Origin: Acidimicrobiia bacterium UBA5794
Lineage (GTDB): Bacteria > Actinomycetota > Acidimicrobiia > Spongiisociales > UBA5794
Direction: 5' to 3'
Assembly (NCBI GenBank): GCA_002418265.1
Contig: DIDS01000032.1
Location: 76,396-140,395, forward strand
Length of the DNA: 64,000 nucleotides
This document shows, piece after piece, positions 7,111 through 64,000 of this stretch (the stretch's first letter is position 1; each line of letters opens with the position of its first letter). Below the pieces are notes generated by a model, which saw nothing but the letters and a program-made list of their open reading frames with translations, did not search any database and was not told the DNA's origin. The position numbers and the translations under genes were made by a program.

Positions 7111-8505
7111 ATGGTCACTCAAGCGCCACCCATTACATCATCCACGACCCCGCCGACTGATTGGGATTTCGATACGAGTTGGTTCCCGTCCGATATTGGC
7201 GAGTGGGAGCCTTCCGTCGAGCTGGGGACGTACCTGACCGAGTTCGATCCGTCAGAACTCGAAAGCGGTGACCGCGTCAGGCTGCTCCAGGCCAGGGCTC
7301 GCCTCGCCTCTCACGTGACGGCGTCACTCCTGCGCGACATTGCCGGGGTGGTGGATGCATACGCTGTGGAGTGTCGCTTGGAGCCCACCGATGAGATCGT
7401 GTTGGACGATGCAGCGTCTGAGCTCCGCGCGGCGCTGCATCTAACACGTCGGGCAGCGGACGGATGGATACATCTCGCTCTTCGTCTGCGAAACGAGTTC
7501 CCCGACCTGTTGGCCCTCCTCAATTCGGGGGATCTCGATCTCCCTCGTGTACGGGCAATTGACTACGCCATCTTCGGATTACCGGACGAATACGCAAGAA
7601 ACGTTGTTGATGCGATCATTGACGATGCACCGCACCTGACAACCGGCCAGTTGGGTGCACGAATACGCAAGCTCATCATCGACCTGGAGCCGGAAGCCGC
7701 TCAGGACCAATACGAAGCCGCCGTCGAGCATCGTTCTGTTGTGGTGTACCCCGGTGAGGCCAACACGGCTGGTGTGAATGCAAGAAATCTTCCTCCCGAT
7801 CGTGTCGCAGCGATCTCGCGTCGCATTGACAAGATCGCAAAATCTCTGCGTACTGGCGGCGAGACGCGAACCATGGACCAGCTACGAGCCGATGTGTTCA
7901 TGGACCTGCTTGCGGGCACAAGCCACACGACGGTGGGACGAGGAGTTGTGGACATCCGAGTCGACCTCGAAACACTGACCGGGCTTGCTCAACGCTCCGG
8001 TGATCTGGGTGGGTACGGACCCGTCGTGGCCGACATTGCCCGCCAGACGGTGGAACAGAACCCGGATGCCGAGTTTCGATTCATGGTGACCGACCGCAAG
8101 ACCCGCCAGCTTGTGAGCCATGGAACCACCCGGAGGCGTCCGACCGCTGAGCAACGACGGCTCGTCGAGATGTTCCACCTGCGGTGTGTCTTCCCAGGCT
8201 GTCGCATGCCAGCGACGCAATGTGATCTTGATCACCGCATCGAATGGTTGGGGAATGGGCCTACGACGGTCGACAACCTTCTACCGCTTTGCAGACATGA
8301 TCACGTGATCCGTCACGATGCCGGGTGGAAACACTTCATCGATGATGTCGGCGACTACGTTTGGGTATCACCGCTCGGTGTCGCCTACCGACAACCACCA
8401 GACGACGACCAATTCCCAAATGCCGCGGCCATTGATGCCGTCGCTCCCGACGTGCCAGCAGTTGACAATGGTTCCGATCCCATGGGAACCCGAGCTCCTC
8501 CCTGA
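7111..8505 (+). CDS. DUF222 + HNH endonuclease protein (REP13E12-like)
   Basis: 464 aa. C-terminal HNH motif CVFPGCRMPATQCDLDHRIEW...NLLPLCRHDH after a long DUF222-like N-terminal region. Typical actinobacterial selfish-element-like protein. Confidence 0.8.
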   Translation: MVTQAPPITSSTTPPTDWDFDTSWFPSDIGEWEPSVELGTYLTEFDPSELESGDRVRLLQARARLASHVTASLLRDIAGVVDAYAVECRLEPTDEIVLDDAASELRAALHLTRRAADGWIHLALRLRNEFPDLLALLNSGDLDLPRVRAIDYAIFGLPDEYARNVVDAIIDDAPHLTTGQLGARIRKLIIDLEPEAAQDQYEAAVEHRSVVVYPGEANTAGVNARNLPPDRVAAISRRIDKIAKSLRTGGETRTMDQLRADVFMDLLAGTSHTTVGRGVVDIRVDLETLTGLAQRSGDLGGYGPVVADIARQTVEQNPDAEFRFMVTDRKTRQLVSHGTTRRRPTAEQRRLVEMFHLRCVFPGCRMPATQCDLDHRIEWLGNGPTTVDNLLPLCRHDHVIRHDAGWKHFIDDVGDYVWVSPLGVAYRQPPDDDQFPNAAAIDAVAPDVPAVDNGSDPMGTRAPP

Positions 8506-8655: not shown

Positions 8656-8910
8656 GTGACCGGCTCCGGCTCGATGCTGCGCTTCTTCACACGTAACGGA
8701 TGTCCGTTGTGCGACAAAGGACTGGCAGTCCTCCAACCAATTGCCGAAGGTGCCGGTTACACAATCGAGATCATCGACATCGATCTCGACCTCGCACTGC
8801 TGGAGCGCTACAACGATCGGGTACCTGTTATCGAAGCCTTGGACGGATCGGTGGTCGATGAAGGAATCATTGCTCCCCGAACCGTCGAGTCCGCGCTCCG
8901 AAATCCATAG
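8656..8910 (+). CDS. glutaredoxin-like small thiol-disulfide protein (DUF836-type)
   Basis: 84 aa. CPLCD redox motif near the N-terminus on a thioredoxin-fold-sized ORF. An alternative start at 8674 (MLRFFTRNGCPLCD) is more typical for the family. Confidence 0.6.
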   Translation: MTGSGSMLRFFTRNGCPLCDKGLAVLQPIAEGAGYTIEIIDIDLDLALLERYNDRVPVIEALDGSVVDEGIIAPRTVESALRNP

Positions 8911-8920
8911 TCGCTGACCG

Positions 8921-8937
8921 GCAATCTGACTTCTGAC
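8921..8937. repeat. (CTGACTT)2 heptamer repeat, inverted copy of the 10205..10240 array
   Basis: ctgacttctgacttc lies between the convergent glutaredoxin-like and geranylgeranyl reductase genes. It is the reverse complement of the GAAGTCA array found upstream of the reductase gene. Confidence 0.7.
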
Positions 8938-8952
8938 TTCGGTCATCGGAAA

Positions 8953-10185
8953 TCATCGTCCGGCGTTGACCACTCGTTCGATCGCTGTGTAGACGTGCTC
9001 GGACATCTTGGCTTCCTCGGGATCGAGAAGGTTGGCCATGACCTTGAGCGTCCATTCCATCAGTGGCTTTGACCGGAGACCGACGGTCGTCAGCGTCTTC
9101 ATCACCGTTGGGTTGCCGATGGCCCTGACAAACACCCGAGCGACCCGGTGGTAGTCGCCATACACATCCTCAAGTTCGACCGCATAATCGCTCAACGAAC
9201 CACCGGCCGCGGCCGAAGCGACATGCCTTGCGGCCATCCGGCCGGTCTCGTAGGCATAGTCGATGCCCTCACCATTGAACGGGTTCACCGCACCCGATGC
9301 GTCACCCACGAGTAGCCAATTGCGGCCGACCTTCGGTCCGACCGACAGACTCATGGGGAGTTTTCCTCCGATTGGCTTTGTGTGGGGTGTCAGGGAATCA
9401 ACCTTCCAGTGATCTGGCAGCGCCTCCGAGTAGGCCTCGAGGATGTGACTCGTGTTGACATCCTTCCAACCCTTGAACGTCGATACGAGTCCTGCACCCA
9501 CATTGATCTCACCGTCACCGAGCGGGAACACCCACCCATAGCCCGGCATCGCACGCCCCTTCTTGTCCCTGATGTCGAGTTGGCTTTCGATGAACGGATC
9601 GTCCGAGTTCGGACTCTCATAGTACGCACGGATGGCAAGCCCATAGGGATAGTCCCGTCGACGGCTCGCCCCCAGACTCCGGCCAAACTGGGAGTTCGAA
9701 CCGTCGGCAATGATCACAAATTCGGGATGAACGACACGACTGCCGTCGTCGGTCATCAGGTTCACGCCGGTGACTGCGTTGTTCTCAAGGATGGGTGTCG
9801 CCGTTGTTCCCTGTTCCACCACGGCGCCCTGTGCCGCGGCGAGCCCAGCCACGGTCCCATCAAGATCGGCTCGACGCATGGTTGCTCCCCAGTTTGGGAA
9901 CACCGAATGCTTGGGCCATGTCAGCTCAATCTCAAGATCGCCTGCATAGGACCGCAGACCGTCGATTCGGTGCAGGTCGAGACCGTCGAAATCGAAGCCC
10001 ATGTCGAGCAGTTGGTGTACGGCCCGCGGTGTGAGACCGTCGCCGCAGGCCTTTTCGCGGGGATAGCGCTTTTTCTCCACGAGGTGAACTTCCAGACCGT
10101 TGCGTGCAAGCCAGTACGCAGCCGATGCACCACCTGGGCCGCCCCCGACGACAAGAACAGATGGTGCAGATGGGAGGGAGGTCAT
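8953..10185 (-). CDS. geranylgeranyl reductase family FAD-dependent oxidoreductase (MenJ-like menaquinone reductase)
   Basis: 410 aa. N-terminal FAD fingerprint VLVVGGGPGGASAAYWLARNG, conserved GDGL, GDASGAVNPFNGEGI block. Confidence 0.85.
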   Translation of the reverse strand: MTSLPSAPSVLVVGGGPGGASAAYWLARNGLEVHLVEKKRYPREKACGDGLTPRAVHQLLDMGFDFDGLDLHRIDGLRSYAGDLEIELTWPKHSVFPNWGATMRRADLDGTVAGLAAAQGAVVEQGTTATPILENNAVTGVNLMTDDGSRVVHPEFVIIADGSNSQFGRSLGASRRRDYPYGLAIRAYYESPNSDDPFIESQLDIRDKKGRAMPGYGWVFPLGDGEINVGAGLVSTFKGWKDVNTSHILEAYSEALPDHWKVDSLTPHTKPIGGKLPMSLSVGPKVGRNWLLVGDASGAVNPFNGEGIDYAYETGRMAARHVASAAAGGSLSDYAVELEDVYGDYHRVARVFVRAIGNPTVMKTLTTVGLRSKPLMEWTLKVMANLLDPEEAKMSEHVYTAIERVVNAGR

Positions 10186-10204
10186 GTGATGAGGGTAATG
10201 AGGG

Positions 10205-10240
10205 GAAGTCAGAAGTCAGAAGTCAGAAGTCAGAAGTCAG
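10205..10240. repeat. (AGAAGTC)5 perfect heptanucleotide tandem repeat
   Basis: gaagtcagaagtcagaagtcagaagtcagaagtcagaa sits in the 61-nt gap between the reductase start and the stop of the repeat-bearing cytochrome c gene. Confidence 0.9.
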
Positions 10241-10246
10241 AAAGCT

Positions 10247-11704
10247 CTATCCCGCGGCTTCTACCGTGGCACCGTCGGTGGAGTCGGCGCCGTCGTCGGT
10301 GAACCCGCAGTCGGCTTCGGCCTCGGCGAGGTCTTCGCCACCGAATTGGACACGCTCATACAGCGCAACCTCGGCAATCTGGGTTTCGTCGAGTGTCGAA
10401 CCAAACGCCGGCATCAAGCCAAATCCCCCGACGGGTTTCGCGTTGGCTCCGTACGTCGGATCGGGCCAACCACTCGTACCGAGGGTGATCCACTCGATCT
10501 GATCTGCGCACGAGCCTGCCGGGAACGTTGTGAGGATCCCACCATCGGTAAAGGCGGGTCCTGCACCACCGGATCCGTCAGCGCCATGGCAAGCCTGGCA
10601 CTGTGCATAGACGGCGGCACCATTACCAAAGTAATCGGCAGTCGAAGTGCCATAGGCAGATCCATCGCAGTTGACGGCATTGCCCGTGACCGGATTGACG
10701 AGGAGTTGTCCTGATGTTCCACATTGGGGTCCGTTTGGTGAGATCAGGATGTAGGTCACGGCGAGGAGTGGAATGATCAGGAATGCTGCCGTGAGCCAAG
10801 CGGGATATCGACCGATCTTGGTACTCGGTGCCTCGACATCCTCCTCCACAATGTCTCCACCGATTGGTTCGATGATCTCGATTTCGTGGGATGTCGAGGA
10901 TGCGTCAGTGTCGGTGTCGGCAGGTTCAGAATCAGCCGGCTGGGTTGTCTTGACTTGATCGACGGGAGCGGGTTTCGCGGCAGACTCGGTTGACGCGACC
11001 GTTGCGGGATCGATCCCTGCCCACTCGGCGAGGACCGCCTCGAGGGACTCACCGGTCTTTTTGGCCCGTGCCTCAGCTGAACGCTTTGCGAGTGCTGCAG
11101 GCATCCCTTTGGCTTCGGCGACCTTGTCCAACAGCTCATCCATTCCTATCCCGCCGAGCGCCGCAGCGGCTACCGGTGCTGCGGCTGGTGAGGCTGGAGC
11201 CACAGGCTCGGATTCCGCTGCCGGTTGGTCGTCTGTCGCCGGTGCTCGGTCGTCGGGTTCCGGTGGTCGGGCTTCGGTCGTTGCTGCGGCCTGTTGCTTC
11301 AATTCATCAAGATCAACACCAGCCCATCCCGCGAGGACCTCATCGAGCGGTGTCCCTGAATGCTCGGCCCTGGCCCTTCCCGAACTCAGGATCAGCTTGG
11401 GTGGCATCCTCTTGGCATCGGCCGCCAGCTGGATCAAGTAGTCGGTCGTCACTTCACCCGGCACCCCCGATTCATCGGCAGGTTCATCGGCAGGTTCATC
11501 GGCGGGCGACGGAGAGGCTTCAGCAGGAGTCGAAGGCTCAGGTTCTGGCGGGACATCTTCGGCAGATACCTCAACGCCAGCCCACTCGGCCAGCACGGCC
11601 TCAAGCGTCATGCCCTCCTTCTCGGCCCGAGCCTCGGCAGATCGCTTCACGAGTGATGCCGGCATCCCACGAATCTCGGCGACCTGGTTGAGGAGTTCTT
11701 CCAT
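10247..11704 (-). CDS. membrane-anchored class I cytochrome c with three N-terminal cytoplasmic ~45-aa repeats
   Basis: 485 aa. Three copies of a KRSAEARAxKxGxxLEAVLAEWAG-type repeat. PADEPADEPADE acidic linker (12-nt DNA tandem repeat at 11471..11506). Single TM (AWLTAAFLIIPLLAVTYILI). C-terminal haem-binding CQACH domain. Confidence 0.7.
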   Translation of the reverse strand: MEELLNQVAEIRGMPASLVKRSAEARAEKEGMTLEAVLAEWAGVEVSAEDVPPEPEPSTPAEASPSPADEPADEPADESGVPGEVTTDYLIQLAADAKRMPPKLILSSGRARAEHSGTPLDEVLAGWAGVDLDELKQQAAATTEARPPEPDDRAPATDDQPAAESEPVAPASPAAAPVAAAALGGIGMDELLDKVAEAKGMPAALAKRSAEARAKKTGESLEAVLAEWAGIDPATVASTESAAKPAPVDQVKTTQPADSEPADTDTDASSTSHEIEIIEPIGGDIVEEDVEAPSTKIGRYPAWLTAAFLIIPLLAVTYILISPNGPQCGTSGQLLVNPVTGNAVNCDGSAYGTSTADYFGNGAAVYAQCQACHGADGSGGAGPAFTDGGILTTFPAGSCADQIEWITLGTSGWPDPTYGANAKPVGGFGLMPAFGSTLDETQIAEVALYERVQFGGEDLAEAEADCGFTDDGADSTDGATVEAAG

Positions 11705-11708
11705 CGCT

Positions 11709-13694
11709 CTACCTCAGCGTCTCGATGTAGCTGACCAACGCATCCATGTCGGCGTCAGATAGATATGAATACGACGGCATCGTTGACCAATCTCTCGAAA
11801 TCCGTGGATCGTTCAGATGCGCCTTGAGCCATCCAGAGTTGAAACCTTCCGAGCTTGCAACATGCATGACGTCGGGGCCAACTCTGAGGTGGCCGAGGAG
11901 GGCGGGGTTTTCGTGGACATAGTCTCCTGCGATGCTGACCGGTCCGAGCCCCACGTCTGTACCGACCGGTCGAACCGATTGTGTGTGGCATTCGCCGCAA
12001 CCTTCAGAGATGTAGATGTTTCGACCAGCGAGTTCAGTTGAACCGGCCGGGTATATGCGCGCCTCATCACCGAGGATTGTCGGTTCTGTATTCGCCGGAT
12101 CGATTGCGGGGAATGCCCCTGTGAGCAAGGCTGCTGCGATCCACACCGACGCGGCTCCCCACGCCAACCGCTTCCAGCTCGGCGCAATGACATCACCCTC
12201 AAACTCAAGGTCATAATCGATCGCACCGTCGCCGGTGCCGACCGATGTGGCATTGCCTTTCCCAAGCCGGGAGAAGGCGAACACGATCTGGGCTGCCGCA
12301 AACAACAGGAGGGAAACGGCCGTGATCCAAAGGAACGGCTCCATCGAAACTGTCGTGATTTCCCATGCACTCCCGTTGTTGGCGAAGGATCCGCTCGCCG
12401 GTCCGGAGGCCCACGAAAATCCAGCAACGACACCCCCAGCGATGGTTCCGAATGCCACGCCCGTGAGTCCAGCCACTGACCAGCTGAAGTGAAGTGGGCT
12501 ACCGGATCTGCTGCCGCCTCGGATGATCGAGTGGGTGGCGAACAAAGCAAATGAGCCGATACCGAGGACTACAAGGAGGTCCTTTGCTTGGCTGAAGCTC
12601 GTCGATTGAACAATTGCACTCGTGGAACGGAATGTGAGGAGCACGTTGACCATGGTCACAGCGCCGAGAGCCACGAACGCGACGGTTGCGTACCGCAACG
12701 TCGCGCGGTCGGCAATCCGTGTCACAGATCCATTCAGCATCAAACCCAGATCTGTTGCGATGGCCAGCAGCGGTACGAATGCCGTGATCGCCAATCCAGC
12801 ACCAAGAGTCTCATACCAATCGGGTGCCGCGGAGAACATGAGGCCCGTTGCACTCATGGAACCCCAAACCAACGCAAGTGACCAGAACCCGATTGCCCCG
12901 AGCGGGCGTGGAGCGCTCGGGTCCGTCCCTGTGAGCGACGTCGCCGCAAAGTAGATGAGCCCGACGCTTGTGACGATCACAAACAGACCGGTGATGCTCG
13001 CCGATGCAAAAGCCGTTTGGACCGAGCCACCGATTCCGTCCATGGGAGGGACCAGGCTGACCGCACTCGACAAAGCAAGCCACCAAGCGCCAGCGGTCAG
13101 ATACCAGCCGGTTGCCCCGAGTCTGTTCCTCGCAGCCATCGCTGTTGAAGCAATGGAGATCGCGGCGAGGATGAATCCGACGACCGTGATGGCTCGTGCC
13201 CATAATGGGGCTTCGAAGCCAGCGATTCCGGATTGCAGGCCGACGATGATCCCGATCGCGCCACCGAGCGTTCCAACGACGATGAGAAGCAGTGAAGCCG
13301 TTGAAAGTGCTGAACGCTTGATGTCGGTCTGGGTCGACCGCGAGATGGCAAACAGCGATGCACCGAGAAGGCCAGCAATGATCCAGCCATTCATCAAGAG
13401 GGTGCGGCCCGCCGGTGCGAGTCGTCCCGGCGACGTCGCGGCCGATCCGGAGAAAAGATCGGGAAGCACGCCCTGGAGCGCGGCGATGCCTGCCAGGATG
13501 AGTCCGAGGATCAGGAAAGCGGCTGCGACCATCAGGAACCGTTTCGCGGTGACCGAATCGGTCGTCGTCGACTCTCCCGTTGGAGTGTCTATGGTCGGAG
13601 TTTCCGCGGTCACGCTGGGGGCTTCCTCCTGCATACGGTGTGTTGCCCTGCCGACTTTCGGCCGTCGCAACTCTAGCCGTGCGACGGAGGTCAC
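11709..13694 (-). CDS. polytopic membrane protein fused to a C-terminal CcoO-like monohaem cytochrome c domain
   Basis: 661 aa with >=12 predicted TM helices, followed by a domain with the cbb3 CcoO-like signature YISEGCGECHTQSVRP. The membrane domain has almost no histidines, so it is not a catalytic haem-copper oxidase subunit I. Confidence 0.65.
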   Translation of the reverse strand: MTSVARLELRRPKVGRATHRMQEEAPSVTAETPTIDTPTGESTTTDSVTAKRFLMVAAAFLILGLILAGIAALQGVLPDLFSGSAATSPGRLAPAGRTLLMNGWIIAGLLGASLFAISRSTQTDIKRSALSTASLLLIVVGTLGGAIGIIVGLQSGIAGFEAPLWARAITVVGFILAAISIASTAMAARNRLGATGWYLTAGAWWLALSSAVSLVPPMDGIGGSVQTAFASASITGLFVIVTSVGLIYFAATSLTGTDPSAPRPLGAIGFWSLALVWGSMSATGLMFSAAPDWYETLGAGLAITAFVPLLAIATDLGLMLNGSVTRIADRATLRYATVAFVALGAVTMVNVLLTFRSTSAIVQSTSFSQAKDLLVVLGIGSFALFATHSIIRGGSRSGSPLHFSWSVAGLTGVAFGTIAGGVVAGFSWASGPASGSFANNGSAWEITTVSMEPFLWITAVSLLLFAAAQIVFAFSRLGKGNATSVGTGDGAIDYDLEFEGDVIAPSWKRLAWGAASVWIAAALLTGAFPAIDPANTEPTILGDEARIYPAGSTELAGRNIYISEGCGECHTQSVRPVGTDVGLGPVSIAGDYVHENPALLGHLRVGPDVMHVASSEGFNSGWLKAHLNDPRISRDWSTMPSYSYLSDADMDALVSYIETLR

Positions 13695-35090: not shown

Positions 35091-36366
35091 TCGTCCAAGG
35101 CGTAGCGTCCCGTTTTTCGGGTTGGCTTTCGTCGGACTTCTTGCCGTGCTGGGGTCACTTGTCGGGTCGCTCGTTACAACAAACATCTTTGTCGTGTCGG
35201 AGAATGATCCAATCTCTGAGGATGTGTACGTCACATCGACGCGTGGTGTTGTCGATGGCGTCATCGATGGTGATCTGACAATCTTTACCGGGAATCTCGT
35301 GATCAACGGCGAGGTGACGGGCACCGTCCAGGTGTTCTCATCTGGATCGGTGACGATCAACGAAGGTGCCAAGATCGGTGGTTCCCTTCGCGGCGCCGCA
35401 CTCAATGTCACGGTCGGCGGTGAAATCGGAGCCGATGTGTTCGCGTCTGCTGCATCGGTGGTTGTCGAAGAAACGGGGACGGTGGCTCGTGATGTCATGG
35501 CATTCGGTGGCGTGGTGCGGGTTGAAGGGGACGTCGGACGCGACGTGCGGGGACGGATGATCAGGACCGTCATCGACGGAAGCGTTGGTGGAGACATTGA
35601 CGTCGCCACGCAGCGCTTTGAGGCCGGTTCGAGTGCCATGGTGGACGGCGATGTCCTGTATCGGTCTCCAACCGGGGCGTCGATCGACGACGGCGCCGAG
35701 ATTCTGGGAACCATCACCAGGCTTCCCTCTCAGAGCAATTTCGTTTACGGGGTCATTCTCACGATTGCCAACCTGGTTGGCTTCCTTGGATTCCTGTTGT
35801 CGGGTCTTGTCGTGCTGTTCGTGTTGCGTGGATCTTCAAGTCGAGCCACCGGCGCCGTGGTGACAAAGCCAATCCGGAGCTTCCTCTACGGACTGGTGGC
35901 GGTGGTGGTGGCTCCGATCGCTGTCGTCGTCCTCGCTGCGACGCTCGTGGGACTTCCTCTTGCGATCATGCTTGCCATGGCAATGGTTGCGTCGCTCATC
36001 GTTGGACCCGTGCCTGCGGTCGCGGCTCTCGGAAACCGCTTGCTGTGGAAGAAGGGCGGAATTCTTGCGGCGTTTGCGGTCGGTGCAGTTCTGTGGCGTG
36101 CCACAATCTGGCTGATCCCTGTGGTCGGCGGGGTCCTCTACGTCATCGCTCTCGTATGGGGCATCGGCGCCTGGATCATCGGTTTCGTTGAGACCCGCCG
36201 TGGTGATGAGATTCCGCTTTCTCTGCTTCCAGAGCGGCTCGTAGCTGAAGACCGGGTACCAGACGACTGGGTGCCGCCGTTGAGCCCGTCATCGGGCCTT
36301 CGGGTAGACAACCGCGTCGAGAACCTCAAGGTCGACGGTGTCCCCAACGTGGATGGCGTGGAGTGA
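35062..36366 (+). CDS. beta-helical (bactofilin / polymer-forming cytoskeletal-like) repeat protein with C-terminal polytopic membrane domain
   Basis: ~435 aa. N-terminal TM, then ~200 aa of degenerate GxVxGxV repeats (GDLTIFTGNLVINGEVTGTVQVFSSGSVTINEGAKIGGSL...), then 5-6 TM helices. Start uncertain (ATG 35062 overlaps the nuoN end; TTG 35122 or GTG 35146 are alternatives). Confidence 0.5.
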   Translation: MSSETHSRCSRPRRSVPFFGLAFVGLLAVLGSLVGSLVTTNIFVVSENDPISEDVYVTSTRGVVDGVIDGDLTIFTGNLVINGEVTGTVQVFSSGSVTINEGAKIGGSLRGAALNVTVGGEIGADVFASAASVVVEETGTVARDVMAFGGVVRVEGDVGRDVRGRMIRTVIDGSVGGDIDVATQRFEAGSSAMVDGDVLYRSPTGASIDDGAEILGTITRLPSQSNFVYGVILTIANLVGFLGFLLSGLVVLFVLRGSSSRATGAVVTKPIRSFLYGLVAVVVAPIAVVVLAATLVGLPLAIMLAMAMVASLIVGPVPAVAALGNRLLWKKGGILAAFAVGAVLWRATIWLIPVVGGVLYVIALVWGIGAWIIGFVETRRGDEIPLSLLPERLVAEDRVPDDWVPPLSPSSGLRVDNRVENLKVDGVPNVDGVE

Positions 36367-37314
36367 CGACACGAGGGCCTCAACTCTGTCGGCGCTCTCG
36401 GCAAGTTCGATCTCAACCCTTTGGTCGTGCCCATAGAACTCAGTGTCGACCACACGGTGTGTGCCTGTTGGCGAAACGGTTGGACTGATCCACTCTGGTC
36501 GGATCATCACGGTCACGTCGGTCCCATCTGAGAGGTCGGTCTCGATCTCCGCGATAGAGGTCGGGATCGACCCCGACTCGACAGTACCGGAGAGAATCAA
36601 CGCATCCCCGAGGAAATGTGCAACCCATCGGTTGACTGGTACTCGATAAACGGCATCTGGTTTACCGATTTGGACGATCGCACCCTCATGCATGACCGCA
36701 ACGATGTCTGCGATCGCAAGTGCCTCTGCCTGGTCATGGGTCACGAGGACCGCGGTGACGCCAGCGGCCCGGATGATCTCCTTGATCTCCCTGCGCATGC
36801 GCTCGCGTTTGGGTGCATCAAGATTCGAGAACGGCTCGTCAAGGAGTACGACATCGGGACCGGGTGCGAGTGCGCGTGCAAGCGCGACGCGCTGCTGCTC
36901 GCCGCCCGAGAGCTCGTGCGGAAACCTCGATCCGTGCCCGCTCAACCCGACCAGTTCAAGCACTTCATCCACGCGATGCACTCGGTCGGACCCCCGTACC
37001 CCGTACCCGACGTTCTCAGCGACGGAGATATGTGGAAACAGCGCATATTCCTGGAACACCATGCCGACCCGTCGCTTCTCGGGTGGCACGTTGACCTTTC
37101 CGTCGAGGACCGGGGTGTCTCGGATCGACACCGATCCCGTGTCCACGTCCTGAAACCCAGCGATGACCCGCAGGGCCGTGGTCTTGCCACATCCGGATGG
37201 GCCCACGAGGGCGAGGAGACTTCCGGTCGGCACATCGAGCGAGAACCGGTCAAGTGCCTTGGCTTCGCCGAATGTCACGGTGACGTCGCGCACGGAGATG
37301 ACATGATCGCTCAT
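36289..37314 (-). CDS. ABC transporter ATP-binding protein (Fe3+/spermidine-type, FbpC/PotA-like with C-terminal TOBE domain)
   Basis: 341 aa from MSDHVISVRD. Walker A GPSGCGKTT, signature LSGGEQQRVALARAL, Walker B VVLLDEPFSNLD. The long ORF upstream of the M is not used because the permease stop lies there. Confidence 0.85.
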   Translation of the reverse strand: MSDHVISVRDVTVTFGEAKALDRFSLDVPTGSLLALVGPSGCGKTTALRVIAGFQDVDTGSVSIRDTPVLDGKVNVPPEKRRVGMVFQEYALFPHISVAENVGYGVRGSDRVHRVDEVLELVGLSGHGSRFPHELSGGEQQRVALARALAPGPDVVLLDEPFSNLDAPKRERMRREIKEIIRAAGVTAVLVTHDQAEALAIADIVAVMHEGAIVQIGKPDAVYRVPVNRWVAHFLGDALILSGTVESGSIPTSIAEIETDLSDGTDVTVMIRPEWISPTVSPTGTHRVVDTEFYGHDQRVEIELAESADRVEALVSSLHAIHVGDTVDLEVLDAVVYPKAR

Positions 37315-38933
37315 CGCTCGACAACAGCCTTTGGCTTGATGGAGAGGAAATAGACAGGAAGCACCGACATGGCGATGAGGATAAGCGCAGCAGTCGCTGC
37401 TCGTGTGTAGAGCAATTCGTCGGCGGCCGCCCACACACGAACAGCGAGTGTCGAGAATCCTGGCGGACTCAACAGCAGTGTGACGGGAAGCTCCTTGAGA
37501 GTCGTGACGAACACCAAGGCGCCACCGGCCAGAAGGCCCTTCGCCATCAATGGAACGGTCACTCGCATCAAGGTCGCGAAAGGGCCACGCCCGAGCGATC
37601 GTGATGCATCTTCGACGGCAGGGTCGACTTGGAGGAGCGACGCTTTCGCCGCACTGGTTGATTGGGCAATGAACATGCCTGCATAGACCGTTACGAGAAC
37701 GAACATGGTCTGGTAGACCGGCCGTGCCCACCTGATGGTGAAGGCAACGACGGCGATGGCAATCGTGATATGTGGAAGCGAGAAGATCACGAACACCGAT
37801 CGCTCAAGGAGCATCGTTCGCTTCGACGCGTAGCGAACGGCGAGGACGACGATCGGTACGGTGAACACCATGGCCACCAACGCAGCGAGTGAGCCACCGG
37901 TCAACGATCCAACAACGGCATTCCACGGGACCGAGATGTCCGCTCCGTGATACGCCCCGCGCGCCACCCAGGTCGTCAACACCCCGATGGGAATCACCGT
38001 CCCGATGACCACGACTGTTCCCAAACCGGCAACGGCGAGGACATGTTTCGCTCCTCGGAGCCGATGCAAGGCCGGGGGCCGGTTCGGTGTCGACGAGAAC
38101 GTCGTGCCCCTACCCGATGTTCGCCGCTCCGCCCAGATGATCACGCTGGCAAAGAGAATCAACACGATCGAGAGCACGATCGCCGGTGATCGGTCGATAC
38201 GACCCGAGTACTGGGCGTAGATCACCCTCGTGAAGGCATCAAAACGCATGAGTGAAACCGCGCCGAAATCCGACAACGTGTAGAGCGCGGCAAGCAGAGC
38301 ACCCGCGCCAACTGCAGGTCGAAGTTGAGGAAGCACGACGGTGCGGAACACCCGCCACGGTGATGCCCCAAGTCCGCGAGCCGCCTCCTCAAGTGCGGGA
38401 TCGATCCGTCCGATCGAGGCGGCCGTGATGAGGTAGACGTACGGATACGTGGCAAGCGTCAGGGCGACCCACGCCCCGGGAAACCCCGTCAGTCTGGGGA
38501 TCTCGAAGCCAACGAGCTGAGCGACAAGTCCGCGTGGACCCGACGACGAGACGAGGACCATCGCAATCACATACGACGGAATGACAAGCGGGAGAGCGAA
38601 CGCGACACCCCACATCCTTTTGAACCCAATATCGGTCCTTGCCAGGATCCACGCACCGGCCACGCCGATGGCGGTTGCGGCCATCGTAACGAGGGCCGTG
38701 AGAGCAAAGGATCGCCACACCAACTCGAGTGTGCGGATCGACAACAGCGTCGACCATGCCGAGTCCGTCGCGTCGAGAACCCGAACCAGGAGCGCGACGA
38801 TGGCAAGTCCGAGCGGGAGAACGATCAGTAGTGAAGCGACCCAGAGCCACCAAGGTGCCTTGGCGGCTGATACCCGTGACCGACGGATCGGATCCGTCTG
38901 CGGTAAGGCATTCGGATCGATGTCGATCATCAT
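37311..38933 (-). CDS. ABC transporter permease, fused two-domain (FbpB-like)
   Basis: ~540 aa, 12 TM. Two EAA-like loops (LSDFGAVSLMRFD.., GRGPFATLMRVTVP). Stop overlaps the ATPase start. Confidence 0.8.
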   Translation of the reverse strand: MMIDIDPNALPQTDPIRRSRVSAAKAPWWLWVASLLIVLPLGLAIVALLVRVLDATDSAWSTLLSIRTLELVWRSFALTALVTMAATAIGVAGAWILARTDIGFKRMWGVAFALPLVIPSYVIAMVLVSSSGPRGLVAQLVGFEIPRLTGFPGAWVALTLATYPYVYLITAASIGRIDPALEEAARGLGASPWRVFRTVVLPQLRPAVGAGALLAALYTLSDFGAVSLMRFDAFTRVIYAQYSGRIDRSPAIVLSIVLILFASVIIWAERRTSGRGTTFSSTPNRPPALHRLRGAKHVLAVAGLGTVVVIGTVIPIGVLTTWVARGAYHGADISVPWNAVVGSLTGGSLAALVAMVFTVPIVVLAVRYASKRTMLLERSVFVIFSLPHITIAIAVVAFTIRWARPVYQTMFVLVTVYAGMFIAQSTSAAKASLLQVDPAVEDASRSLGRGPFATLMRVTVPLMAKGLLAGGALVFVTTLKELPVTLLLSPPGFSTLAVRVWAAADELLYTRAATAALILIAMSVLPVYFLSIKPKAVVER

Positions 38934-63415: not shown

Positions 63416-64000
63416 ATGTCCGCTGAAAACCCGCGCGTCGCTGGGATCGTGCTGGCTGCTGGCGAGGCCACGCGCATGGGCGAGCCCAAGGTGACGCTTC
63501 CCTACGGAGGGTCGACCATTGTCGAAGCTGTCGTGTCTGTCGCATCAGCCGCTCGCCTTGAACCAATCATCGTCGTAACAGGCTTCTATCACGAGGCGGT
63601 GACAGCGGTGATCGGGGATACTGCCACGGTCGTCCACAATCCGGATGCGGCATCTGGCAATCTGTCGTCGCTCAGAGTCGGGGTATCGGCAGCCGGTGAC
63701 GTCGATGCCGCGGTGATCTTGCTTGGCGATATGCCCGAAATCGAATCGGAAACCGTGCAGCAACTTGCGCACCAGGTGGTGTCATCAGGTGCCGTTGGCG
63801 GATGGGTGCGGTACCGCGGCGACCAACACGACGGAGATACCCGCGGGGGAGATGACCGCGGGGAAGATGACCGCGGGGAAGATGACCGCGGGGAAGATGA
63901 AATGGGGCATCCGATGGTGCTGTCCCGACACGGTCTGGCCGGTTTTTCCGCTCTCACCGGGAGAAGGCCGGTGTGGCGCTACCTGACCAGCCTTGACTCA
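63416..64000 (+). CDS. MocA/MobA-like molybdenum cofactor nucleotidyltransferase (runs off window end)
   Basis: N-terminal AGIVLAAGEATRMGEPK and ILLGDMPEI blocks. Contains an in-frame acidic pentapeptide repeat insertion encoded by 63833..63907. Confidence 0.7.
   Translation, partial: MSAENPRVAGIVLAAGEATRMGEPKVTLPYGGSTIVEAVVSVASAARLEPIIVVTGFYHEAVTAVIGDTATVVHNPDAASGNLSSLRVGVSAAGDVDAAVILLGDMPEIESETVQQLAHQVVSSGAVGGWVRYRGDQHDGDTRGGDDRGEDDRGEDDRGEDEMGHPMVLSRHGLAGFSALTGRRPVWRYLTSLDS
63833..63907 (+). repeat. 15-nt tandem repeat x5 (GGAGATGACCGCGGG-type) inside the mocA-like gene
   Basis: ggagatacccgcggg / ggagatgaccgcggg / gaagatgaccgcggg x2 / gaagatgaaatgggg. Encodes GDTRG-GDDRG-EDDRG-EDDRG-EDEMG. 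Confidence 0.85.

Follow-up and report, generated by a model that had tools for sequence, protein, structure and literature searches.

In many bacteria, heptanucleotides outnumber all other long simple repeats, and polymerase slippage has been proposed for them (Mrazek 2007, as cited in PMC4679880 and PMC4692102). In the survey of Mrazek, Guo & Shah (2007), as these two papers present it, Actinobacteria are among the richest genomes and the function of the repeats is left unexplained. Some units have been described individually. TAACTGA repeats occur in marine Beggiatoaceae, Cyanobacteria, and Bacteroidetes, and the Beggiatoa genome carries 169 sets of them, located a few nucleotides from a start codon in the sense orientation (MacGregor 2015, PMC4679880). 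The units GGGAATC of Xanthomonas and GGGGA(T/C)T of Nostoc are G-rich, form G-quadruplexes, and, at a given intergenic site, vary widely in length and sequence among close species (Rehm et al. 2015, PMC4692102). In the present study, we analyzed a pair of heptamer arrays that lie in inverted orientation on either side of a reductase gene, within a 64-kb stretch of DNA from an uncultured member of the Acidimicrobiia; we call this stretch the window.

Results

The gene between the two arrays (Table 1) encodes a flavoprotein that scored 226.7 bits against TIGR02032 (cut-off, 158.8), which places it in the geranylgeranyl reductase family, and 290.5 bits against the MenJ equivalog model NF045655, which makes it MenJ-like but under the equivalog cut-off of 700. 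The cytochrome-c-domain gene upstream closes a cbb3-like (FixO) cluster whose gene order is kept in relatives. Likewise, the order of the cytochrome gene, the reductase gene, and the convergent glutaredoxin-like gene is kept in relatives down to 84% identity that are devoid of the arrays.

Table 1. Features of the reductase locus, with positions in the window.
Feature	Position	Strand	Basis or remarks
Glutaredoxin-like (DUF836) gene, convergent	8656..8910	+	Stop faces the downstream repeat
Modest hairpin with UGACCG/CGGUCA stem	8912..8948		Both AAGTCAG units in the loop; -13.6 kcal/mol
Downstream inverted copy, TCTGACTTCTGACTTC	8925..8940	-	16 nt, 2.3 perfect units
Geranylgeranyl-reductase-family flavoprotein gene, 410 aa	8953..10185	-	Profile scores and NCBI name
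Two 9-nt units, CCCTCATTA and CCCTCATCA	10187..10204	-	Between the array and the ATG; sequence inspection
Putative -10 hexamer, TACCCT	10192..10197	-	6 nt before the ATG (-12..-7); conservation in orthologues
Upstream array, (GAAGTCA)5.4 on the + strand	10205..10242	-	38 nt, 100% perfect
-35-like CTGACT (TGAC core) within the upstream array	10214..10219	-	16 bp upstream of the -10 hexamer
Gene for 485-aa protein with C-terminal cytochrome-c domain	10247..11704	-	Upstream of the reductase

The upstream array occupies most of the 61-nt spacer between the stop of the cytochrome-c gene and the reductase start. On the sense strand of these genes it reads (CTGACTT)5.4, begins 4 nt past the TAG stop (10247..10249), and covers -57 to -20 relative to the reductase ATG (A at 10185), so that it ends 20 nt before this codon. 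The reductase and glutaredoxin-like genes converge on a 42-nt spacer, in which the downstream copy is located, 12 nt past the stop of the former (8953..8955) and 14 nt past that of the latter (8908..8910). On the reductase sense strand it reads (AAGTCAG)2.3, the exact reverse complement of the upstream unit, and it runs on as degenerate units to position 8950. The repeat search returned the pair with 16 nt at 100% and 26 nt at 85% complementarity and 1264 nt between the arms. Both arrays consist of head-to-tail 7-nt units, are longer than expected by chance, and are intergenic, and thus belong to the long simple sequence repeats (LSSRs). The initial annotation, which had reported two exactly reverse-complementary arrays on the flanks of the reductase, was borne out in this respect, as the arrays are perfect in sequence and beyond chance; it had also given the unit, copy number, and orientation of the downstream array correctly, while its coordinates for that array (8921..8937) were about 4 nt off.

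Within the 64-kb window, the 14-mer GAAGTCAGAAGTCA, allowing up to two mismatches, matched both array sites only. The search gave five overlapping matches versus 0.45 expected, a number attained by 0 of 100 shuffles. Perfect period-7 runs of at least 16 nt were found three times in the window versus 0.3 times in shuffles, and the single heptamer was not enriched there (12 versus 10 expected). The hairpin in the convergent spacer (8912..8948) folded no better than shuffles (z = -0.95), and Rfam returned no match for the locus (E up to 1), nor for 17 loci with heptamer hairpins.

Promoters of the -10-only type with a TANNNT motif and plentiful leaderless mRNAs have been described in Actinobacteria (PMC3898074). 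We found TANNNT at 6-10 nt before the start codon in 73 of 80 distinct upstream regions of orthologues, compared with 0-1 in control windows; the consensus across orthologues is TAnCCT. In the window, this hexamer straddles the junction of the two 9-nt units that separate the array from the ATG. A Shine-Dalgarno-like motif was found in one of the 80 regions, and none precedes the reductase start in the window. The conserved -10 hexamer together with the absence of a Shine-Dalgarno motif suggests that the reductase mRNA is most likely leaderless, with transcription from the ATG or an adjacent position. The array would then be promoter-upstream DNA lying before the transcription start, and most likely reaches RNA solely via read-through from the cytochrome gene; no terminator was seen between the cytochrome gene and the reductase. 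Its earlier assignment to a 5' UTR is not supported by these counts. CTGACT within the array may serve as a -35-like element; in the alignment it occupies the identical position in three sister lineages, and the region is weakly conserved across all orthologues. A scan with the sigma-70 consensus found no promoter at this site and is uninformative for a promoter without a -35 consensus. The reductase family thus offers a clean, conserved example of a probably leaderless gene, which helps start-codon annotation in Acidimicrobiia.

We compared the arrays with those of sister lineages whose reductases are 94-95% identical. The homologous upstream site carries 5.4 copies in the window, 2.4 copies plus one degenerate unit in L411-413 (three assemblies), and 2.6 copies in L421, and in the separation of array and -10 box the window and L411 differ by exactly 7 nt. 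At the downstream site, L411 (94% identity) has a single ATGTCAG within a 21-nt duplication, and the downstream spacer of both the window and L411 reads as the degenerate heptamers CCGATGA, CCGAWGT, CAGNNTG, and CCGGTSA. L421 likewise brackets its reductase with inverted arrays, (GACGTCC)n upstream and (GGACGTC)n downstream, and its unit differs from that of the window at two mutually complementary positions. This unit has the palindromic core GACGTC, and each of the L421 arrays is strongly self-folding (-26 kcal/mol for 6 units). At 88-89% identity, L414 and L417 have no array at the homologous site, and the homologous spacer of L420 (84% identity) contains a hairpin of another heptamer, (CAGATAA)n/(TTATCTG)n; throughout the relatives of at most 88% identity with equal gene order, the array is missing or replaced by other heptamers. 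Two short contigs considered as candidates for further brackets, P0058 and P0060, carry no arrays. Heptamer repeats of Acidimicrobiia therefore turn over inside a genus-level clade.

No length variants of the array were seen in the two full-length assemblies, both of which have 5.4 copies; these assemblies are identical over 13 kb and are therefore not independent. Logan contigs from at least seven runs break inside the upstream array and pass through the downstream arm unbranched. The Logan graph is built with k = 31, and a 38-nt period-7 run necessarily loops such a graph; we thus rejected the breaks as evidence of polymorphism.

When both arrays are placed on one RNA, a 16-bp duplex between them is predicted with a probability close to 1 and -28.4 kcal/mol. 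In a 1346-nt RNA, this inter-array duplex is part of the MFE structure, and the ensemble holds 16.0 expected inter-array pairs. Across 81 distinct orthologous loci, we took the longest exact complementary match as the measure of spacer complementarity; the 99th percentile of cross-locus controls was exceeded only in the window and L421, and in L411 the longest match between the spacers is 6 nt. A bracket stem conserved across orthologues was thus rejected, the other 79 loci being at background. RNAduplex gave no usable information on whole spacers, as GC-rich sequences reach large energies throughout. Of the previously proposed end-to-end pairing, the prediction of a 16-bp duplex on a single RNA stands, but the pairing is not conserved across the 81 loci.

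Perfect heptamer arrays had been regarded as unusual in high-GC intergenic DNA. On the contrary, perfect period-7 arrays of 16 nt or more number 35 in 427 kb of orthologous loci from the clade, compared with 0, 3, 0, and 0 arrays of periods 8, 9, 10, and 11, respectively; simple base matching, by our own arithmetic, gives an expectation of about 1.6. Period 7 is the dominant simple repeat not divisible by three in this clade. The units of the 35 arrays are all different, many of the arrays are in spacers adjoining the reductase gene, and 21 of them fall within the 12.5% of sequence outside long open frames.

The GAAGTCA unit itself is widespread. At least 120 tandem stretches were found in species-representative genomes of many phyla (Cyanobacteria, Bacteroidota, Acidobacteriota, Nitrospirota, Planctomycetota, Verrucomicrobiota, and Alphaproteobacteria). 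Many of the arrays are in filamentous cyanobacteria (Okeania, Moorena), and in cyanobacteria the array forms one end of dispersed repeated elements. In IMG/VR, GAAGTCA gave 56 stretches versus 5, 7, 8, and 16 for four composition-matched shuffles, and TAACTGA gave 107. We rejected absence of self-structure as the property shared by favored heptamers, as GATGACA and GACAGTA are equally unstructured and 7-8 times rarer. Provision of UGA in all three frames was also considered as a purpose and rejected; shuffled heptamers with this property are rare, and other arrays of the clade are without it. Intergenic GAAGTCA copies show no orientation bias relative to neighboring genes (17/16/10/11), which is consistent with a DNA-level process. 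Where close inverted GAAGTCA pairs occur elsewhere (arms within about 500 nt), the purine-rich arm comes first, with (GAAGTCA)n 5' of (TGACTTC)m, in 18/18 and 4/4 cases, whereas the pair in the window has the opposite arm order and a 1264-nt gap and is thus distinct from a close terminator-like inverted hairpin. We did not find the GAAGTCA/TGACTTC unit in the searchable literature. The initial annotation had held that a unit common in random genomic contexts, or an array absent from close relatives with an otherwise identical locus, would speak against its reading, and part of this was observed: the unit occurs in many genomes and contexts without strand bias, and the array is absent at 88% identity or less although the gene order is the same.

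Discussion

On balance, we favor the interpretation that both arrays are slippage-generated heptanucleotide microsatellites near a leaderless reductase gene and largely a mutational by-product, with slippage as the probable mechanism and with near-neutrality probable. Replication slippage would make and resize both arrays in the two short spacers that flank the reductase. The upstream array would act as double-stranded promoter-upstream DNA, and the -10-only promoter TACCCT would drive the reductase. Its promoter-proximal units would supply the -35-like cTGACt at 16-bp spacing, which is retained in the three sister lineages, and extra identical units could come or go with the proximal sequence and spacing unaltered, so that growth from about 2.5 to 5.4 copies would be tolerated. 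If so, heptamer arrays can stand harmlessly directly upstream of a -10-only promoter. The downstream copy would be the result of one 7-nt tandem duplication of an earlier A(A/T)GTCAG in a small hairpin loop, in a spacer that may itself be an old, degenerate heptamer array. The match of the two sides could be due to a favored slippage-prone unit and occasional copying between the arrays, by gene conversion or template switching, and the inverted match need not be a designed regulatory device. Slippage alone, however, has its difficulties. As there are about 1170 heptamer classes and the remaining 62 kb of the window contain no further copy, independent origin of the exact inverse 1.26 kb away is very unlikely. 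The differing inverted unit of L421 looks like two-sided co-evolution, which slippage alone leaves unexplained, and gene conversion between arrays of 16-38 bp is an assumption of ours. In addition, self-structure does not account for the eight-fold excess of the unit over shuffles, and this excess could indicate a function.

The two spacers may therefore act on one another, by way of gene conversion or of selection for pairing. A stronger version, which we consider unlikely, is that the arms pair over a long range and that this pairing is maintained around the whole leaderless unit, either as an RNA stem or as gene-converted DNA inverted repeats, and that GAAGTCA/TGACTTC is a second cross-phyla heptamer family. 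An RNA stem in read-through or antisense transcripts could then serve processing, insulation, or termination; alternatively, inverted repeats in DNA could be held alike by gene conversion. In either case the arms would co-evolve, as in the two complementary differences of L421, and GAAGTCA/TGACTTC would follow rules of its own, as TAACTGA does, for example, with the purine-rich arm first in close inverted pairs (22/22). If the cross-talk between the spacers is true, the locus would be a natural example of concerted evolution of microsatellite arms on the two sides of a gene, and would offer a handle on the recurrence of TAACTGA and GAAGTCA in unrelated phyla.

Pairing at the RNA level, in which the arrays loop out the reductase unit and the stem is an RNase III processing or insulating site or a terminator, would concern sense read-through transcripts from the cytochrome genes or antisense transcripts from the glutaredoxin-like gene. 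The perfect 16-bp duplex predicted, the extension of complementarity to 26 nt at 85%, the unstructured state of the array RNA by itself, which leaves it free to pair, the lack of a visible terminator after the cytochrome gene, and the inverted L421 arrays of another unit with two complementary differences are all in line with this proposal. However, the reductase's own mRNA is most likely leaderless and would be without the 5' arm, complementarity between the spacers is missing in the other 79 distinct loci, L411 included, and the thermodynamic fold of a 1.3-kb RNA leaves aside ribosomes and co-transcriptional folding. Moreover, a duplex of 16 bp is short for an RNase III substrate. Because the L421 unit has a palindromic core and folds strongly on itself, independent local hairpins, selected separately as terminators, could mimic covariation, at a chance that we roughly estimate at about 0.1. 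We therefore regard an RNA stem as doubtful. It is quite unlikely, in our judgment, that the upstream array is an expression-tuning repeat whose copy number alters the strength of the reductase promoter or read-through from the cytochrome operon. The array directly adjoins the promoter and holds -35-like TGAC motifs, its copy number varies among sister lineages, and arrays of this kind are prone to slippage. Of the contingency element suggested earlier, the slippage part agrees with the 5.4, 2.4, and 2.6 copies, but the switch does not, since a change by whole units spares the -35-like element, the spacer, and the -10 box. In addition, the array is outside both the -35/-10 interval and the ORF, such actinobacterial promoters rely mainly on the -10 box (PMC3898074), the two non-independent full-length assemblies show no length variants, and the gene encodes a housekeeping-type quinone/isoprenoid reductase rather than a surface or restriction function.

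There is little to recommend binding of a DNA- or RNA-binding factor to the TGACTTC repeats on both sides, possibly with operator looping. For the TAACTGA repeats, an S1-, Csp-, or CsrA-type RNA-binding protein has been suggested, the reductase start has no Shine-Dalgarno motif, as in the TAACTGA case (PMC4679880), and the tandem unit is about eight times commoner than composition-matched shuffles and, like TAACTGA, occurs in many phyla. In contrast, 85 intergenic arrays without strand bias argue against a strand-specific RNA signal, the 7-bp period sets consecutive sites on different faces of the helix, and L421, with another unit on both sides, would need an altered binding protein; the array is also missing in relatives of at most 88% identity with the same gene order, and no candidate regulator is encoded nearby. 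We judge it highly improbable that the arrays are a recombination substrate, formed when an inversion breakpoint split an ancestral array, whose arms flip a promoter-plus-gene cassette or homogenize each other. Although in two sister lineages the arrays enclose exactly the promoter plus the ORF, and same-unit partners in Acidimicrobiia are inverted in six cases, with no convincing direct case, the reductase gene has a constant orientation in all assemblies and relatives examined, no recombinase gene adjoins the locus, and Logan contigs cross the downstream arm without a branch. Furthermore, this arm is only 16 bp in the window, which is less than the usual homology requirement of RecA. A mobile cassette, in which a MITE-like or composite element imported the reductase and the arrays are its terminal inverted repeats, has next to no chance of being correct. 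Identical inverted sequences on both sides of one gene and the cyanobacterial elements that end in a GAAGTCA array would fit it, but the arms are unequal (38 versus 16 nt), neither a target-site duplication at the array borders nor a transposase was found, and the gene order kept in array-free relatives down to 84% identity effectively refutes it.

Comparison with described repeat systems

We compared the arrays with known systems. SARP-type sites consist of heptamers at 11-bp intervals, i.e., one helical turn, beside the -10 box; we rejected this type, since the units in the window are contiguous with a 7-bp period. In rRNA operons, RNase III stems bracket the rRNAs; these stems are conserved, longer than the arms described here, and not tandem repeats. 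They resemble the locus in having complementary sequences, about 1.3-1.7 kb from each other, on both sides of a complete functional unit, and the RNA-pairing model would operate in this manner, while the pairing predicted here is limited to two sister lineages. Contingency loci such as Moraxella uspA2 (AGAT) and promoter-spacer repeats similarly have a slippage-prone repeat beside a promoter or start codon, but the array in the window lies outside the -35/-10 spacer, the ORF, and probably the transcript.

The resemblance to the TAACTGA repeats is closer. Both are favored heptamers with a CTGA core and give unstructured RNA on both strands; in each, one strand has stops in all three frames and the opposite strand has none. 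Both are patchy across phyla, occur upstream of start codons without a Shine-Dalgarno motif, and are far commoner in tandem form than shuffled heptamers (107 and 56 versus 5-16 in IMG/VR). However, the unit in the window is CTGACTT and has only the CTGA core in common with TAACTGA, and GAAGTCA arrays have no orientation bias. Beggiatoa has many sets per genome; the 64 kb covered here contain two sites. In addition, the array in the window ends 20 nt upstream of the start codon, with a -10 box between it and the ATG. The Xanthomonas and Nostoc repeats are also intergenic heptamer arrays, some of them inverted pairs (PMC4692102), but GAAGTCA is unable to form a quadruplex. Cyanobacterial STRR heptamers, as cited for Calothrix PCC 7601 in PMC4692102, are likewise tandem heptanucleotides in non-coding DNA, and differ in their unit sequences and in their high abundance genome-wide. 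The closest match, as far as these secondary accounts describe the class, is the bacterial heptanucleotide LSSRs, with which the arrays share perfect head-to-tail 7-nt units, a chiefly intergenic location, variability between relatives, and a strong lineage excess of period 7 over neighboring periods; they differ in their arrangement, a gene being flanked by two inverted arrays of one unit, as in L421 with another unit. Taking these comparisons together, the arrays are best seen as a further case of this known, unexplained heptamer class and one more instance of the long-noticed 7-nt tandem excess in bacterial intergenic DNA.

Locus and heptamer arrays

The geranylgeranyl-reductase-family gene of the window is enclosed by two inverted arrays of one heptanucleotide unit, whose features are collected in the table. 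The reductase is MenJ-like, yet its score was far under the MenJ equivalog cut-off. The same sequence is present in the MAG GCA_027494075.1 (contig JAOSJN010000001.1) of an uncultured Acidimicrobiia bacterium and in JGI metagenome 3300029304. With up to two mismatches allowed, the double unit was found at two sites only in 64 kb, the upstream array and the downstream copy, and perfect runs of period 7, 16 nt or longer, were ten times commoner than in shuffles; the paired arrays exceed chance. The initial annotation had described the sequence correctly except for the coordinates of the downstream copy, which were about 4 nt off.

Features of the reductase locus and repeats in the window
Feature	Position	Strand	Remarks
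DUF222/HNH endonuclease gene	7111..8505		adjoins glutaredoxin-like gene
Glutaredoxin-like gene	8656..8910	+	convergent with reductase gene
Reductase/glutaredoxin-like gene spacer			42 nt; genes convergent
Downstream copy, (AAGTCAG)2.3	8925..8940		exact reverse complement of upstream array unit
Geranylgeranyl-reductase-family gene	8953..10185	-	410 aa; passes TIGR02032
-10 hexamer TACCCT	10192..10197		-12..-7 from reductase ATG
Upstream array	10205..10242		(GAAGTCA)5.4 on + strand = (CTGACTT)5.4 on sense strand; perfect, 38 nt
Cytochrome-gene-to-reductase spacer			61 nt = 4 nt + perfect 38-nt array + 19 nt
Gene for 485-aa protein with cytochrome-c domain	10247..11704	-	
Degenerate 7/14-nt repeat (GGTCGTC-like)	11227..11281		within cytochrome-c-domain gene
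(TTCATCGGCAGG)2.8 repeat	11471..11503		perfect; within cytochrome-c-domain gene
cbb3-like FixO-domain gene	11709..13694	-	
Third perfect heptamer run, (CCCCGTA)2.4	36992..37008		within long ORF (36289..37731, -)
15-nt unit CCGCGGGGAAGATGA x4	63841..63900		near-perfect (97%); close to window end

The two repeats within the cytochrome-c-domain gene probably encode a repetitive linker region of its protein. Both the window and the 94% relative have the DUF222/HNH gene, the latter with an HNH_2 gene in addition. Relatives with 89% identity or less lack it at this place, and it looks like an insertion acquired recently by the clade carrying CTGACTT arrays.

A probable leaderless promoter

We compared 80 distinct sequences from upstream of orthologous reductase genes (53-95% identity). 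A TANNNT hexamer with the consensus TAnCCT preceded the start codon by 6-10 nt in 73 of these, compared with 0-1 in control windows of equal width further upstream, and a Shine-Dalgarno-like motif was found in just one. The box is strongly conserved across the whole orthologue family (L127-L206, L411-L421), and together with the lack of a Shine-Dalgarno sequence it is a clean signature of a leaderless gene in Acidimicrobiia. In M. tuberculosis, where leaderless mRNAs are abundant, a TANNNT box is centred 7-12 bp 5' of transcription starts and there is no conserved -35 motif (PMC3898074). Because the reductase -10 pattern matches these promoters, its mRNA most likely starts at its own ATG, and the array, at -57..-20, would precede the transcript, in promoter-upstream DNA rather than in the 5' UTR to which it had been assigned. 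A cTGACt within the array, 16 bp 5' of the -10 box in the window and both sister lineages alike, may serve as a weak -35 element. No terminator was seen in the cytochrome-reductase spacer, and the array would be transcribed solely via read-through from the cytochrome gene.

Turnover between lineages

The unit and position of the upstream array are common to the closest relatives (reductase 94-95% identical). Copy number differed between relatives, being 5.4 in the window, 2.4 plus one degenerate unit in one sister lineage (three assemblies, L411-413), and 2.6 in the other (L421), and the distance from array to -10 box differed by exactly 7 nt between the window and L411. Relatives at 88-89% identity have the same gene order without the array, and an 84% relative carries another heptamer hairpin, (CAGATAA)n/(TTATCTG)n, in the cytochrome-reductase spacer. 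At the downstream site, L411 holds a single ATGTCAG within a 21-nt (3 x 7) duplication, and the downstream spacer in its entirety reads as degenerate heptamers, which indicates that the (AAGTCAG)2 of the window is a one-unit duplication of earlier sequence. The array is evolutionarily labile, as expected of a slippage microsatellite.

Logan contigs from at least seven sequencing runs end inside the upstream array. Logan uses k = 31, and in a de Bruijn graph of that k a period-7 run of 38 nt forms a loop; we therefore rejected these breaks as a sign of polymorphism, and all they imply is an array of 38 nt or more in those runs.

Pairing and the inverted arrangement

Folding of both arrays on one RNA gave the 16-bp duplex with near certainty, a prediction expected for any perfect 16-mer pair. 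The end-to-end pairing proposed initially is physically possible, in read-through transcripts only, and is not conserved beyond two sister lineages. We scored how well the upstream spacer complements the downstream one in 81 distinct orthologous loci; the window and L421 alone rose above the 99th percentile of cross-locus controls, and the complementary stretch in L411 was at most 6 nt. Conservation does not support a general function of the bracket formed by the two arrays around promoter and ORF. A contingency switch is unlikely from the geometry.

L421 (Logan SRR13704950; reductase 94.6% identical to that of the window) is a 1332-bp contig with ends lying within both arrays. It starts in (GACGTCC)n (1-67), with the (CTGACTT)2.6 array 3' of this, and its other end, immediately following the stop codon, is in (GGACGTC)n (1304-1332), the exact reverse complement. 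Its unit differs from that of the window at two positions, and both changes are complementary (upstream GACTTCT to GACGTCC; downstream GAAGTCA to GACGTCG). This single short contig suggests that the two spacers evolve non-independently. The core of the L421 unit, GACGTC, is palindromic, and both arrays are strongly self-folding; terminator hairpins selected locally and independently on the two sides could therefore mimic the same picture, with a low but appreciable probability by our rough estimate. Same-unit partners of Acidimicrobiia arrays were inverted in six cases, four of them 4-146 nt apart and two across the reductase gene, and none was convincingly direct.

The GAAGTCA unit in other phyla

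At least 120 stretches of (GAAGTCA)3 were found in species-representative genomes, where 0.3 would be expected by chance; the matches listed included Cyanobacteria (Okeania, Moorena, Crocosphaera), Acidobacteriota, Nitrospirota, Bacteroidota, Planctomycetota, Verrucomicrobiota, and Alphaproteobacteria. In IMG/VR, the unit gave 56 stretches versus 5, 7, 8, and 16 for four same-composition shuffles, and the published heptamer TAACTGA gave 107. GAAGTCA, with arrays about 8 times commoner than those of composition-matched shuffled heptamers, is a favoured heptamer; self-structure does not explain the preference, and we found no paper that mentions this repeat. The 85 intergenic GAAGTCA arrays favoured neither orientation with respect to the genes beside them (co-directional 16 vs 17, convergent 10, divergent 11), which argues against a strand-specific RNA signal. 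Where an inverted partner lay within 600 nt in other phyla, the purine-rich arm always came first (18/18 and 4/4), giving the order 5'-(GAAGTCA)n...(TGACTTC)m-3' in 22 of 22 pairs. The window has the opposite arm order, with 1264 nt between the arms, and therefore is not one of these close hairpins.

The unit also occurs in other settings. In Acidobacteriaceae (L017:4868-5002, L120:7332-7423), a long hairpin directly 3' of a stop codon has the array as its outer part and conserved inner arms (TTGCAGAAGTnAAAG ... TTTTACTTCTnCAA); it looks like a terminator or REP-like element made of heptamers and had no match to an Rfam family. Arrays of filamentous cyanobacteria adjoin dispersed sequences that are conserved (Okeania L010, L014, L026, L028, L037, and L043; Moorena L032, L051, L112, and L116; also L033 and L118), examples being a left border of TTAAC/TTAAT and, on the right, a common flank some 80 nt long starting 'cagaagttatttttgtaacgggg...'; the array seems to form one end of a repeated and possibly mobile element. 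About 3-5 units lie inside very long ORFs (900-1450 aa) in L031, L088, L109, L059, and L060; three units make 21 nt, which keeps the frame and would add KSEVRSQ to the protein, and only the GAAGTCA orientation can be coding because every frame of the complementary strand contains TGA.

Origin of the arrays

Perfect heptamer arrays, initially regarded as unusual, are normal in this clade. In 427 kb around orthologous genes we counted 35 perfect arrays with a period of 7 and a length of 16 nt or more, all with different units, compared with about 1.6 expected by our own estimate from base matching alone; periods 8, 10, and 11 gave none and period 9 gave three. They were concentrated outside long open frames, and many occupied the spacers flanking the reductase on either side.

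Different heptamer arrays in the same two spacers were seen in relatives at L420:2921-3000, L129:4194-4246, L130:1810-1844, L133:1841-1951, L136:2456-2536, and L189:2370-2454. Two form perfect hairpins in which a unit faces its reverse complement, namely (CAGATAA)/(TTATCTG) and (CGTAATA)/(TATTACG), and the longest is (GGGAAAC)12 (85 nt). An 89% relative (L417-L419:4225-4545) has a 320-nt spacer after the reductase gene with (AGCTCTC)2, (CCGTAAT)2-3, and a potentially structured GC-rich segment.

The array pair is best explained as slippage-generated heptanucleotide microsatellites in the spacers around a probably leaderless gene. Both arrays would have been generated by slippage, the upstream one in promoter-upstream DNA where gain or loss of units would be harmless. 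The concerted inverted relation of the spacers in two lineages and the cross-phyla preference for the unit, for which the data are thin, are left unexplained by this reading and lift the finding above a trivial repeat. The period-7 excess of this clade agrees with the published abundance of heptanucleotides, which, in the work of Mrazek (2007) as summarised in PMC4679880 and PMC4692102, outnumber all other long simple repeats in many bacteria including Actinobacteria, with polymerase slippage proposed as the cause of the long repeats and no function known.
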